From a virus (Duplodnaviria > Heunggongvirae > Uroviricota > Caudoviricetes): 43,411 nucleotides of DNA. This document shows positions 2,466-8,577 of the stretch, one piece after another. The stretch's first letter is position 1, and each line of letters begins with the position of its first letter. The stretch lies in IMG/VR virus record IMGVR_UViG_2541047907_000004, positions 1 to 43,411 of that record; one strand, 5' to 3'. A program made the translations under genes and the position numbers. The notes under the pieces are model-generated. The model saw nothing but the letters and a program-made list of their open reading frames with translations. It did no database searches and was not told the origin of the DNA.

Positions 2466-4547
2466 TCAATTTATTGATAACATTTGCGCATTTGTCCCAA
2501 TTTTTGCAAATGTTGCAACTTTCCATGATGCGCCAGCAATGTCATTGCCTGAAATTGTAATTATATTGCCATCAGTTCCTGGTGCTTTGTTATTACCGAT
2601 AGTAGTCTTACCATCAATGTTTATTATTGTAATTTTCTGCCCTGGTGAGATGTAACGAAGTCTAGACAGCGTTGTATTCGATGCTTGGCTGATTGTTGCT
2701 TGTGATGTATGGGTTACTACAGGAGCCACACCAGTTATTGTATTAAAAGAACTTCCCGTCCCCCTAAACATTACACCAAAGTATATATTTTGTGTGCATA
2801 TAATCAATCTATCACCAACACCGGGGTATATTAATGATGGATCATACGCCATTTTATAGTTATTTGTTTCATGATATGTATTTTTTAGTAACAACACCTC
2901 AGCGCCAGATCCAGCTTTAACTCGCGGAGGTGTAGAGCAATAAAAATCAGCATATGATAGTAGGTCGAACATATAAGATGTAACTAAACTATTTGGATGT
3001 TCGATATCAACCCCACCTTCAAAGAATATGCTACCTGAACTTGTGCAAAAAGCTGTTCTTGGCTGCTGAGGTGATGAATTTATGTTTCTATATTTAAACG
3101 ATCCCATTACTGTAAGTGCCGCTTCTCCTGAAGACTGAAGACATGCTTGCTTAATTACCCCTTGCTGATTTGCAGTGATGTTTATGATGCCAAACTTGAC
3201 GTCAGTCCCAGCACCAACGCACAATATATTGTATGCACTAGGATCTTGACCAGGACCGGTGAAATTGGCATTGACATCACACACGCAGTTAACAGACCCA
3301 ACTGATCCTGTAGCACCATCTAAGAAATAAGAAATAGAAGAAAGACCAATACCGGATATACTCTCTATTCTAAAACCTGCTGTAGTATGAAGTTTTACTG
3401 GTGAGCACGCCAGAGGAGAGCCATCTACATATATTTCACCACAATAAAAACCCTTACCATGGCCATTTGTGTACAATGCATGACCTTCATGACCTTGCGA
3501 TGCAGTGATGTTTTTGTGATAAATACTACCTATGCGCTGATTATCAAATACAACTCCAAATACCCCGAAATCAACAGTATTAAAAATAGCTTTATCTATT
3601 TTCGCAGACACTCCTGTGAACCACACACCAGCAATAAACCCATAAACATCAATTGTATCTATATAGAACCCTGATACATCTCTATTTTCGTAATAATTCA
3701 TCCAAATTGACGCCCCATAAGATTTCCAGTCTCCAGATGTGACGTATGAATAACCGAGGGTGTTACTGCTTATAACAGCCGTTCTATCACCATTGTACTC
3801 AAACTTCCAGTATCCGAGCATTTTAACACGTGGCGTACGTACCTCAAATACAGGATACCCCCACAGCAATTGCTCAAAGATAGCATTATCAGAAATTAGA
3901 ACCATGTCAGGATTTGGAATTATAATCCACCCAGATATAGTGTATTTTAGATTTCCAAATTCTATTCTCTTTGCACCGCTATTTAGAGCAGCATTAATTG
4001 CTGCCATATCAGCAATGTAATCGCCAACACCAATAGAACCATGTTCTGCAAAGTCGGTAACAGATACTGTTTCTGAGTTTTTATCGTGTTGTGTACGTAG
4101 AACTGAGCCAACGAAAGGTTGCTTAACGCCAAGCATTGCATCACCTTTCGAGTCATCTTCAGCATATACTCCTGTTTGGGATAACTGCTGAAGAAGATTT
4201 GGTCCGAACTGATCAGGGTCATACTTCAGCACATTAGGAAAATAGAACTGCTGCGCACCATATGCATCATAAACAGCCATCGAATGACCTTGCACGGTTA
4301 CAAACTTGGCAATCTGTCCGTTATATACAGGATAACCAGCAGCGTTGATAACTATTGGCTGCGCCACCTGAACATGAGAGCCATCTTCTCGTTCCAGATA
4401 TACAGGGATCTGGTTTTCTGGATTTACCGGGTCAGTGTCAATTTTACCGATATAAATTTTGCCATTGGCAACCGCTTTAAAAGAACGCGCCATAGTGAAG
4501 AGTTGCGATGGCATACTCACTACAACATTGGCTGTAATGTCTGTCAT
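2466..4547 (-). CDS. Tailspike protein: P22 gp9-like N-terminal head-binding domain plus a divergent receptor-binding/enzymatic domain
   Basis: 693 aa; N-terminus [50 protein letters not shown]... closely matches remembered P22 tailspike N-terminus; the remainder is G/S/T/N-rich beta-helix-like and not P22-like. Confidence 0.85.
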
Positions 4548-5892: not shown

Positions 5893-6147
5893 ATGGCTAG
5901 AGATGATCCGCACTTTAACTTCCGTATGCCTATGGAAGTAAGGGAGAAATTAAAATTCAGGGCGGAGGCGAATGGGAGATCAATGAACTCCGAGTTGTTA
6001 CAAATCGTCCAAGATGCTCTATCAAAACCATCGCCTGTGACTGGCTATCGCGACGAAGCTGAACGCTTGGCTGATCAGCAGGCAGAGCAGTTCAAGACTG
6101 TTGTGTTTGAGACACTTAAAAAGATTTATGGCAAGGATGATAAATAA
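5893..6147 (+). CDS. mnt: Mnt repressor (maintenance of lysogeny; ribbon-helix-helix)
   Basis: 84 aa MARDDPHFNFRMPMEVREKLKFRAEANGRSMNSELLQIVQDALSKPSPVTGY..., matching remembered P22 Mnt; divergent from arc. Confidence 0.9.
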   Translation: MARDDPHFNFRMPMEVREKLKFRAEANGRSMNSELLQIVQDALSKPSPVTGYRDEAERLADQQAEQFKTVVFETLKKIYGKDDK

Positions 6148-6683
6148 TGCTGCACACAATTCATTTCTTATGCCCCGTTAACACCGCCACTGTTGGGCAA
6201 CTTCAGAACCACTGTCTCACCGCATTATCTCAAGGCGCAACTGAATTAAATATCCATATATCAAGTCAGGGAGGGGAAACTGCCGCTGGTTTTACTGCGT
6301 ATAACTTTCTTAAGTCACTCCCTGTTGCCGTTAGAACTCACAACATAAGCAATGTTGAATCCATAGCTAATATCGTTTTCCTGGCTGGCTCAGAACGTTT
6401 CGCAAACCCATTATCAAGATTCCTGTTACATCCTCTATTATGGGGCTTTGCCACCCCAGCCGCCGACCATGCCAGATTGAGAGAGTACGGGAAATGCCTC
6501 GATAACGATCTTGATCGCTTCGTTGAGACGTTCAATATCGACATCGGAACCCATATTAGGTGGGCATCCCTGATAGCAGACTCGACCATTTTGGATGCTA
6601 ACAAGGCTCTTGAGCATGGCATAATTAATTCCATAAAAACTGCAAGGCTGGTATCCAATCAGGCAAACTGGTGGGTTGTTTGA
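6147..6683 (+). CDS. ClpP-like (S14 family) serine peptidase-fold protein, translationally coupled to mnt
   Basis: 178 aa; ATG overlaps the mnt stop (TAATG); blocks HISSQGG, ISNVESIANIVFLAG and SRFLLHPLLWG align with ClpP YINSPGG, GQAASMGAFLLTAG and SRVMIHQPLGG (from memory), with Ser and His at triad positions. Confidence 0.6.
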   Translation: MLHTIHFLCPVNTATVGQLQNHCLTALSQGATELNIHISSQGGETAAGFTAYNFLKSLPVAVRTHNISNVESIANIVFLAGSERFANPLSRFLLHPLLWGFATPAADHARLREYGKCLDNDLDRFVETFNIDIGTHIRWASLIADSTILDANKALEHGIINSIKTARLVSNQANWWVV

Positions 6684-6760: not shown

Positions 6761-6946
6761 TCAACAGCTTCCGCGTCCCTGAGTAATTCTGTCGCGGATT
6801 TGCTTCTTACGGTGGTTTAAGCTGGAGAGCTTGGCTTCTGCTTCTGATATTTGCGCATCAAGATCTTTAAGCTCAAGATCTGAAAGTCGCTGGTCAAGCA
6901 GGGTTTGGTTCAACTCAATGTTGTTCAGGCGTTCTTCTATGGTCAT
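6761..6946 (-). CDS. Small coiled-coil protein (61 aa), unknown function
   Basis: ATG preceded by AGGAG RBS; sequence MTIEERLNNIELNQTLLDQRLSDLELKDLDAQISEAEAKL... has heptad-like repeats; convergent with the ClpP-like gene. Confidence 0.4.
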   Translation of the reverse strand: MTIEERLNNIELNQTLLDQRLSDLELKDLDAQISEAEAKLSSLNHRKKQIRDRITQGRGSC

Positions 6947-7087
6947 GATTTCTCCTTGTTGAGGTTGATGTGAAACGATTGATTGTATACGCACTCTTTT
7001 GTTAGCTAGTAGCTTTGCTTAATCGCAAGATAAAGTTTCTGATTAATCCCTAAAAATCAAAAAATAAAGTTAAAACAGGTACATGAT

Positions 7088-7291
7088 ATGGAATGGATCA
7101 TAGGATTTGTTGTTCTTATCTTCATAGCCAGTATGTTTAAACCAAGAAGTTGCGATATCTGTGGTGCTGGATTTAAGAAAAAGTACTTCACATGGACTAT
7201 CGATGGAAAGAAACAGCATCTTTGTCCGTACTGCAACAGTAAAATGGAGAGACGCAACAGCGATAGACGCTTTAAGGATCGATTTGGTTAA
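7088..7291 (+). CDS. Small membrane-anchored zinc-ribbon protein (67 aa), unknown function
   Basis: N-terminal hydrophobic segment IIGFVVLIFIASMF followed by CxxC...CxxC (CDICGAG...CPYCNS); followed by a strong terminator. Confidence 0.45.
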   Translation: MEWIIGFVVLIFIASMFKPRSCDICGAGFKKKYFTWTIDGKKQHLCPYCNSKMERRNSDRRFKDRFG

Positions 7292-7306
7292 CCATTTTAT
7301 CTCCAA

Positions 7307-7337
7307 CAAAAAAACCCACCTGACGGTGGGTTTTATT
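7307..7337. terminator. Bidirectional intrinsic terminator (acccacc-tgac-ggtgggt, A-run upstream, T-run downstream)
   Basis: Perfect 7-bp stem, 4-nt loop, flanked by aaaaaaaa and ttttatt; serves convergent genes 7088-7291 (+) and 7336-7755 (-). Confidence 0.7.
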
Positions 7338-7755
7338 AGTGCTTGTATAGGTTGAACTCTCTATCAAGCCATATAACAAAAAATGTCGATCCAAGACGAT
7401 AACCAACCATGGCTTTCAAATCATCAAATCTAAAAGCCAAGAAATGATCTACGTCTTCCGTTATATGACCGGGGATACCAGCTTTAATTGCACCCCTTGC
7501 AATCTTCTCAAATCCAAGCTTATGCCTACCTTGCTGCTTAATCTCTGCCCATGTTAGTTGACTTAATCTGTATAATTTATCAGCTAAGCCAGCTTTCTCA
7601 TCTTTTTGGCATTTCGTTATGCAGTGAGAGCTTTGGATGTAACAGAATGAAAATTTCGGTTTCTTTTGATCTGAATTCCCCCCTGACTGCGGCCCTAACT
7701 TTAACTTACCTGTAGATTCAGCAGGGGGGATAATCCTTTTAGATTTTCTTGCCAT
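7336..7755 (-). CDS. Unknown 139-aa protein downstream of and coupled to the DUF4065 gene; candidate toxin/effector
   Basis: ATG at 7755 lies 4 nt after the upstream gene's stop; basic N-terminus, C-x6-C-x3-C cluster, beta-rich C-terminus ending ...GYRLGSTFFVIWLDREFNLYKH; the ORF also has an upstream in-frame start at 7830 overlapping the neighbour. Confidence 0.45.
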   Translation of the reverse strand: MARKSKRIIPPAESTGKLKLGPQSGGNSDQKKPKFSFCYIQSSHCITKCQKDEKAGLADKLYRLSQLTWAEIKQQGRHKLGFEKIARGAIKAGIPGHITEDVDHFLAFRFDDLKAMVGYRLGSTFFVIWLDREFNLYKH

Positions 7756-7759
7756 CTCG

Positions 7760-8209
7760 TTAGTTAATCCGAGTTGCAAAGTACTCTGCCATCTCCTTAG
7801 AGCTAATTTCAGAACCACCAACACCCTCAATATAGTTTGATCTCCATGGTGACTCTTCGTGTGTCATGTTCCTCAGTTTCCAGGCAGAAAATTGCCCAAA
7901 AACATCCCAGACTTCTTCTAATAGCTCTAACTGTTCTTCGCTGAATTTTTCAGCATCAAAAGACTCTGGAGAAGGGATAGCTCCATTACCATATTGTTTA
8001 TAACGGCGATAAAGCTCAGGGACAACAGGGCCATGCATCCAAGCTTCCATCTTATTCTGAAAAAGAGGCTCACCAAGCAACGCCAATGAAAACCCCTGAG
8101 CATAGTAAACAAGCTTTTGTAATTTTAAATTAGAGATTGTGTCACCGCTATCCTCGTCACACCGCGACAGGAAGTAGTCGGCGACATCAAAACAAGTAAG
8201 CATGAACAC
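7760..8209 (-). CDS. DUF4065 / Panacea-domain protein (GepA/SocA-like), candidate antitoxin
   Basis: 149 aa; GGAGG RBS 5 nt upstream of ATG; motif block NLKLQKLVYYAQGFSLALLGEPLFQNKMEAWMHGPVVPELYRRYKQYG matches my recollection of the DUF4065 family signature. Confidence 0.65.
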   Translation of the reverse strand: MFMLTCFDVADYFLSRCDEDSGDTISNLKLQKLVYYAQGFSLALLGEPLFQNKMEAWMHGPVVPELYRRYKQYGNGAIPSPESFDAEKFSEEQLELLEEVWDVFGQFSAWKLRNMTHEESPWRSNYIEGVGGSEISSKEMAEYFATRIN

Positions 8210-8577
8210 ACCTCCATCTTGATAGCCACAGCTAAGTATCCAACTATGTCAAATGTCATTTAATACTATAACAAAGCTATCAGCAATCCTTCGGAGGCTA
8301 ACTTACAACCACTTTAGCGACATGTTTAAACCATTACGTTTCACATTTACTGCATTTTCGCCGAAGTTACCTATAAGGTAATGTCACATTTCCTGCAAGT
8401 TTCATGCAATGTTGAAAAGTGAGCTATTCACTTTTCTATGACACTAAACACCAAAAATAGCACTTTTTGCTAAATCATTCGTCCAAGTTGTGGATGGTTT
8501 GTCGTTGACACGTTTTCACACACCACTCCACCAATAAAGTATCATCTGGTATCCTGCTCAAAACTAAGGAGGTTGGT

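Follow-up and report, generated by a model that had tools for sequence, protein, structure and literature searches.

Do two small genes carried side by side by a phage encode a toxin and its antitoxin, or a means of aborting infection? The question is raised by IMG/VR virus record IMGVR_UViG_2541047907_000004, a 43,411-nucleotide (nt) sequence from the Caudoviricetes; this whole stretch is called the window below. Here, the minus strand of positions 7336-8209 holds two head-to-tail open reading frames (ORFs), panA first and panT second. The original prediction described a DUF4065, or Panacea, gene followed after 4 nt by a gene for a 139-amino-acid (aa) protein, and proposed that the two form a candidate toxin-antitoxin (TA) or abortive-infection pair. 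Both ORFs, the gap and the length of the partner are as described (Table 1).

The upstream protein carries a Panacea domain. PanA matches Pfam family PF13274 (SocA_Panacea, formerly DUF4065) over residues 28-120 (E=1.8e-24), scoring 87.3 bits against a gathering cutoff of 25.7; profile search thus bears out the assignment made from the letters alone. It also matches phrog_1281 (E=6e-60) and is catalogued by PGAP as 'Panacea domain-containing protein' WP_000954425.1. PanA is acidic (isoelectric point (pI) 4.6) and has no extra N-terminal domain. Identity with the SocA/SocB pair was ruled out. On the SocA equivalog model NF047745, PanA reaches 71.4 bits where the cutoff is 190, and its partner has a RelE-like predicted fold and is not SocB.

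Pairs of this kind have already been catalogued. Kurata et al. scanned 20,209 genomes for DUF4065, named the domain Panacea, and predicted 1,268 PanA-PanT pairs, which they divided by toxin into 88 clusters (2022, PNAS 119:e2102212119, PMC8832971). Cluster T1 is the largest, with 217 of the 1,268 pairs. Dataset S1 of that work places in T1 the proteins YP_006560565.1/YP_006560566.1 of Salmonella phage vB_SemP_Emek (Emek below; order A|T, gap -62, reciprocity 4|5), and the Emek PanA is listed there as 'noNTD' (PMC8832971). The window PanA is identical to its Emek counterpart at 147 of 149 residues. For PanT, 157 of 161 residues are identical, and 137 of 139 within the 139-aa core. The window pair also has the PanAT layout: a Panacea gene, a 4-nt gap and a terminator after panT. 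We conclude, with certainty, that the window carries one more copy of PanAT-T1, a known module; a pair already catalogued and published has been found again.

The pairing itself is conserved. A Panacea gene of 143-145 aa lies directly upstream of panT in all five distant homologues, with gaps of -8 to +35 nt. Contexts of distant pairs include the tail/baseplate region of an Aeromonas phage, two Solidesulfovibrio loci by a P22-type portal gene, an acidobacterial metagenome-assembled genome, and two other loci, one of them beside an integrase. Hence, the coupling of a Panacea gene to this partner extends across phyla, as well as to both phage and non-phage contexts.

PanT belongs to phrog_8366 and has no family in Pfam. 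The protein is basic (pI 9.7), with a K/R-rich tail at residues 1-30. Its relatives are numerous: 169 matches in a 90%-clustered collection and, by profile search, 1,486 representative clusters at E<=1e-3 (857 at E<=1e-10). Among 263 relatives, E83 is conserved in 100%, R109, D131 and Y137 in 98% each, H139 in 97%, R120 in 90% and H78 in 87%. Residues G81, G118, W69, F35 and P95 are near-invariant and structural. The window protein carries every one of these residues, polar and structural alike. In the resulting pattern, the Glu follows a conserved Gly, the core strand that comes next bears an Arg, and the C-terminus reads Y-x-H. In YoeB, the catalytic set is E46, R65, H83 and Y84, and we take the conserved PanT set to recall those of YoeB and HigB. 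Retention of this YoeB-like set of invariant polar residues argues that PanT is an active enzyme. Furthermore, a basic PanT beside an acidic PanA gives the usual charge pattern of RNase toxin/antitoxin pairs.

Other features of PanT were less informative. The original prediction had drawn attention to a C-x6-C-x3-C cluster, which is present in the window copy (C38-x6-C45-x3-C49) but is not a feature of the family. Across the same 263 relatives, C38 is conserved in 5%, C45 in 64% and C49 in 73%. Because the cluster is so poorly conserved, a metal cluster in PanT is unlikely, and a zinc or other metal site was ruled out on the rarity of C38. Similarly, 39 of 40 relatives match the NCBIfam 'MAG6450 family', all below its cutoff, and this gives no functional information.

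A structural model points to the class of enzyme. The AlphaFold2 model of PanT, built with 40 diverse relatives, has a mean predicted local distance difference test score (pLDDT) of 87.7; beyond residue 30, the score is above 90. Residues 1-30 are basic and disordered in the model, and the core spans residues 31-139. The core consists of a first beta strand (34-36), two helices (51-65 and 69-74), a strand (83-86), an insertion, and three further strands (104-131). Residues E83, R109, D131, Y137 and H139 map to the core strands and the C-terminus. Searches with the model returned a single superfamily of structures, RelE/YoeB/YafQ-like (BECR), while Foldseek against the viral structures in BFVD was uninformative. 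Note that Kurata et al. had assigned T1 to 'mRNase' by HHpred (PMC8832971). We conclude that the PanT core, as modelled, has a RelE-type fold. Hence, the faint resemblance to RelE and YoeB mentioned in the original prediction is right at the level of fold, by AlphaFold2 and Foldseek. It does not extend to sequence, since Pfam, a profile search of the PDB and hhalign found no link to RelE/YoeB families.

A sequence link does exist to NsnC, part of Menshen, reportedly an antiphage system from the work of Millman in 2022. The window PanT aligns to positions 178-279 of the 284 in the PADLOC model for NsnC (E=9e-6). The same C-terminal region is matched by all 40 of 40 PanT relatives, with a best E of 1.7e-10. 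A 2025 analysis names this C-terminal domain of NsnC 'PB-BECR1' and regards it as an RNase effector that is YafQ-like and bears an H-R-H triad (PMC12065111). By analogy, the conserved residues of PanT fit this proposal.

On balance, we think it somewhat probable that PanT is an RNase of the RelE/YoeB/YafQ type, restrained by PanA through direct binding. PanT would be an mRNA endonuclease, probably ribosome-dependent. Its active set would be E83, R109 (possibly with R120 and H78), Y137 and H139, resembling the Glu-Arg-His-Tyr of YoeB and the H-R-H of NsnC. PanA would bind PanT directly and keep it inactive, as other standalone Panacea antitoxins do with their partners, and translational coupling would hold PanT at or below PanA levels. 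Transcription in the lysogen would start in the divergent intergenic region. Loss of PanA, or its sensing of a cue such as a superinfecting phage, could then release or activate PanT. The expected outcome would be translation shutdown, leading to abortive infection, exclusion or prophage addiction. More tentatively, the prophage-borne pair may serve to shut off translation conditionally, when infection triggers it. We are similarly hesitant about the fullest form of the proposal. Here, T1 would be a latent RelE-like RNase with the NsnC effector domain, PanA would be both inhibitor and infection sensor, and the two would make a compact abortive-infection system at the slot of P22 sieA.

Several observations weigh against the RNase reading. 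The Foldseek matches of the PanT model have weak statistics (E ~0.05, with TM ~0.6 relative to the target). Pfam searches with PanT and its 40 relatives gave noise only, with no membership of the curated RelE, YoeB, HigB, YafQ or ParE families. The PanT profile had 0 matches at E<=10 among PDB sequences, and hhalign of the PanT family with E. coli YoeB (sequence checked against 2a6q) gave nothing. Catalytic residues are assigned by analogy only, and PADLOC models gave no match to PanA. The pair is therefore not placeable in any curated RelE-family model, nor is it SocAB. The original prediction had also given the pair its own promoter. A consensus scan found no minus-strand sigma-70 site in the intergenic region (8204-8577), where an extended -10-like element is visible by eye.

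Published toxicity tests count against the RNase reading too. In Table S1 of Kurata et al., the Emek T1 protein has the predicted class 'mRNase' and the experimental result 'not toxic', having been expressed in E. coli from pBAD33 with a strong Shine-Dalgarno (SD) sequence (PMC8832971). The T1 protein of E. coli MOD1 (WP_077635758.1, gap -20) was likewise 'not toxic' in E. coli. That of Clostridium cadaveris (WP_074844970.1, gap -1) was 'toxic' in E. coli, and its PanA 'failed to neutralise' it (PMC8832971). The searched literature contained no case of a T1 PanA neutralising or binding its partner, no T1 pair that passed toxicity plus rescue, and no phage-defence test or phenotype for T1. Biochemical data on T1 members and later functional work on the cluster did not turn up there either, and the Ernits 2023 supplements hold no match to these accessions. 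Because the Emek protein was scored non-toxic, and neither rescue nor a defence test was found for T1, the TA or abortive-infection reading stays a candidate and not a finding. The original prediction thus stands as to a module of Panacea and partner; toxicity together with rescue was not borne out for any T1 pair in the published tests. Non-toxicity of the 139-aa protein, which it had named as grounds for rejection, has in part been reported, for the Emek PanT in E. coli.

Could the tested constructs account for this? The panT frame is open upstream as far as TTG 7830 (164 aa). Since homologues are 135-146 aa long and align from ATG 7755, and since PGAP likewise gives 139 aa, the 139-aa start is favoured. 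In contrast, the Emek PanT was annotated and tested as a 161-aa protein, from a gene overlapping panA by 62 nt. The Emek construct has 22 extra N-terminal residues, MVVLKLVLRRWQSTLQLGLTNE, of which the first nine are strongly hydrophobic. With the native 4-nt gap, in-frame upstream starts give overlaps of 3k-4, a series that includes both 62 and 20. The allele found in Escherichia phage EC.P3 has a 5-nt gap, so an overlap of 20 is impossible there, and a 147-aa form of PanT is widely annotated in E. coli. For these three reasons, we infer that the MOD1 construct is the same enterobacterial allele with 8 extra residues. Hence, each of the two published non-toxic constructs seems to have an N-terminal extension that stems from annotation (22 and, on this reasoning, 8 aa). 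Of the T1 constructs, just one had a native-like start, the toxic one from C. cadaveris (gap -1). This pattern suggests, but does not prove, that the extensions cause the published non-toxicity. A point on the other side is that 8 residues added to an already disordered tail give no obvious reason for inactivation. On the RNase reading, the 'not toxic' results would mean either that it is latent without its trigger or that extra residues from mis-annotated N-termini (161 and 147 rather than 139 aa) compromised the constructs. We regard genuine latency of the enterobacterial allele and compromised constructs as equally possible. Note that public records annotate PanT at four lengths (139, 147, 160 and 161 aa), and some of these variants occur on hundreds to 1,000 or more contigs. 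Upstream TTG, GTG or CTG starts overlapping panA account for the forms above 139 aa (7336-7830, minus strand).

The same tests can be taken at face value. PanT might be an intrinsically inactive or narrowly specific nuclease, harmless to the host, which is switched on or directed to phage RNA only when PanA detects infection. PanA would then be an activator or sensor, and the pair would not be a classical TA system. As expected on such a scheme, neither of two constructs of this allele was toxic in E. coli, which belongs to a natural host genus. Ernits et al. propose that Panacea is primarily a sensor (2023, PMC10440598), and the homologous NsnC domain is considered to be under the control of partner proteins, not of an antitoxin (PMC12065111). 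However, the C. cadaveris T1 protein is toxic alone, and a classical type II layout is evident in the acidic/basic pairing, the antitoxin-first order and the tight coupling. In addition, the standalone Panacea proteins studied so far, in other pairs, neutralise by direct binding (Ernits et al. 2023, PMC10440598). We therefore consider a pure sensor and effector rather unlikely.

The distribution of the pair bears on what it might do for its carrier. A cassette spanning 7309-8580 is 99% identical in Escherichia phage phiv205-1 and in Emek. Of 5,426 complete E. coli genomes, 48 carry it at >=95% identity and another 34 at 80-90%. Identical PanA and PanT proteins also occur in a different phage backbone, beside a LexA-family repressor. 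The corresponding slot of phages EC.P3 and E212 is occupied by a divergent allele, whose PanA is 71% and PanT 58% identical to those of the window. Synonymous sites are saturated between the window and EC.P3 alleles, so protein identities were used instead of dN/dS. Because about 300 bp upstream are almost invariant while the proteins differ to this extent, the alleles must be exchanged within conserved flanks. We conclude that panA-panT is a mobile two-gene cargo cassette of P22-like and other temperate E. coli and Salmonella phages.

Differences between the two alleles are unevenly spread. Most divergence between the EC.P3 and window PanT proteins is in the N-terminal tail, where residues 1-26 are unalignable. 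For PanA, differences cluster in the last ~27 residues, with others scattered. Speculatively, the PanT N-terminal tail and the PanA C-terminal ~27 residues may form the cognate interface.

In the window, the pair lies between the ejection-protein genes and mnt/arc/ant. P22 encodes sieA, a superinfection-exclusion gene expressed from the prophage, in the corresponding part of its genome, and we take the P22 gene order to place sieA in this slot. The sieA-equivalent position given in the original prediction therefore matches. This location matters for a further possibility, that the pair is an addiction module, stabilising the prophage or the cassette, with no role against other phages. Its architecture is TA-like, and the cassette moves between phage backbones while keeping its own conserved flanks. 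Yet addiction depends on toxicity of the partner, and the published test saw none for this allele. Furthermore, the slot holds a superinfection-exclusion gene in P22, and the effector domain is in common with a validated antiphage system. Hence, addiction alone seems improbable. A role in counter-defence or in the phage life cycle is the least probable of the readings weighed here. In this case, PanA would neutralise host toxins during infection and its partner would have a phage-specific, non-toxic role. The cassette is phage-borne, and Panacea can evolve to neutralise non-cognate toxins (PMC8832971). Against this, the same pair occurs in non-phage chromosomal contexts, the two genes co-diverge at the same locus (71%/58% identity in EC.P3), and PanT retains a nuclease-like set of conserved residues. 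The reading we favour thus remains that of an RNase restrained by PanA.

Details of the locus are consistent with coupled expression. The panA stop codon (TAA 7762-7760) is followed by CGAG and then by ATG 7755 of panT. There is no good SD sequence ahead of this ATG and so translation of panT is likely to be coupled to that of panA. The GGAGG motif (8215-8211) is 1 nt from GTG 8209 and 7 nt from ATG 8203. Because this spacing fits the ATG, and not the GTG, the likely panA product is 147 aa, which is also the PGAP length. The original prediction was thus correct as to the ribosome-binding site, and its 149-aa length is probably two residues too long. The motif is also kept in Emek and in the divergent EC.P3 allele. 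As had been proposed, a strong terminator follows panT directly. Its hairpin (7334-7311) has a 10 bp stem with 5 G-C pairs, and the Emek record annotates the same hairpin as a rho-independent terminator. An Rfam scan of 6900-8950 gave only sub-threshold matches, to this hairpin, and hence no evidence for an RNA antitoxin or small RNA.

The 374-bp intergenic region presumably carries divergent promoters. It is almost invariant across the window, Emek and EC.P3, despite the divergence of the EC.P3 coding alleles. By eye, an extended -10-like element, TGTTATAGT, is at 8273-8265, beside a tandem (A/T)TGACAT pair at 8259-8246. Direct repeats of TGCAG(G/T)AAATGTGA lie 43 bp apart, at 8397-8384 and 8354-8341. 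A perfect palindrome, GAAAAGTGA-N5-TCACTTTTC, is at 8436-8414.

Table 1. Position of panA, panT and associated features; coordinates are those of the window, except for the last row.
Feature	Position	Strand	Description
panA	7760-8203	-	Standalone Panacea-domain protein, 147 aa, ATG 8203; alternative GTG 8209 gives 149 aa
panT (cluster T1)	7336-7755	-	Basic 139-aa protein, ATG 7755
panA ribosome-binding site	8211-8215	-	GGAGG, 7 nt ahead of ATG 8203
Intrinsic terminator	7311-7334	-	AAAACCCACC-GTCA-GGTGGGTTTT and T-run, right after panT stop
Divergent intergenic region	8204-8577		374 bp, between leftward panA and rightward 109-aa gene (GTG 8578)
mnt and Clp-family gene	5899-6683	+	Mnt repressor (Arc and Repressor_Mnt domains), then 178-aa Clp-protease-family protein (PF00574, E=7e-12)
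Small ORF	6761-6994	-	61-77 aa, between Clp-like gene and zinc-ribbon-like ORF
Zinc-ribbon-like ORF	7088-7291	+	67 aa, hydrophobic N-terminus, CxxC...CxxC motif
109-aa ORF	8578-8907	+	GTG start, GGAGG ribosome-binding site at 8568, divergent from panA
Second PanA-T1 allele	2528-3399		Escherichia phage EC.P3

The genes around the cassette are varied. The start of the Clp-family gene overlaps the mnt stop codon at 6147. In EC.P3, a 178-aa ORF, matched by size and position alone, follows the ORF at the mnt position, beside the divergent PanAT allele. The Clp-family gene is absent from Emek and ETEC1738. Such a neighbour is curious, given that SocA, the founding Panacea protein, is a ClpXP adaptor; the linkage is not obligatory. 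The small ORF next to it has no Pfam match and a coiled-coil look by eye. Its PADLOC matches to PbeC (E=6e-4) and JetC (E=9e-3) are probably due to chance, as are those of the neighbouring small ORFs in general (PbeC, JetC and DpdH, E 6e-4 to 9e-3). The zinc-ribbon-like ORF has a weak match to PF09723 (E=0.007); it converges on the panT terminator and is outside the conserved cassette. On the other side, the 109-aa ORF has, by eye, an N-terminal transmembrane segment and a coiled coil. It corresponds, by position only, to an Emek ORF whose annotation is Sf6 gene 38-like. Over the initial ~120 bp (8578-8700), the 109-aa ORF matches HK620 in the hkcB/hkcC region.

No class of Panacea partner is more abundant than T1, which is without a known biological role. 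To its description, we add that the family core is in common with the Menshen RNase effector domain, and that it has YoeB-like invariant polar residues. We also add that a single enterobacterial allele apparently underlies both published non-toxic constructs, which were expressed from upstream starts taken from annotation. Toxicity or a defensive effect of native 139-aa PanT would give a function to a cargo common in prophages of E. coli and Salmonella. If PanT had neither, the pair would make a good case for Panacea sensing on behalf of a latent effector. Were the latent-RNase reading true, the largest and so far unvalidated class of Panacea partners would be a working defence family.

Four known systems invite comparison. 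The Emek pair is the same cassette, with 99% DNA identity over 1,272 bp and the same position in a P22-like genome, although the surrounding cargo genes differ from those of the window. SocAB, the Caulobacter type VI TA system to which the founding Panacea protein belongs, has the antitoxin-side domain in common. However, the partner here is not SocB and PanA is far under the SocA equivalog cutoff; furthermore, SocA acts as an adaptor for ClpXP, while for other PanA proteins the mode of action is direct toxin binding. Compared with the RelE, YoeB, YafQ and HigB endonucleases, PanT shows no detectable sequence similarity; its first 30 residues form a basic, disordered tail, and ~18 residues (87-103) are inserted between strands. 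Its partner is a Panacea protein, whereas RelE-type toxins pair with RelB, YefM, DinJ or HigA. Finally, PanT is free-standing beside its Panacea partner, unlike NsnC in the NsnABC system of Menshen. The inPIN N-terminal domain of NsnC is absent from the 139-aa PanT. No genes for NsnA (ParB/DUF262) or NsnB (ABC ATPase) are near panA-panT, the neighbours being small ORFs, Mnt/Arc/Ant and ejection-protein genes. Membership of Menshen was ruled out by the lack of all three, NsnA, NsnB and the inPIN domain. What PanT does have is direct sequence similarity to the C-terminal effector domain of NsnC, with H78, R109 and H139 as candidate equivalents of the H-R-H triad.

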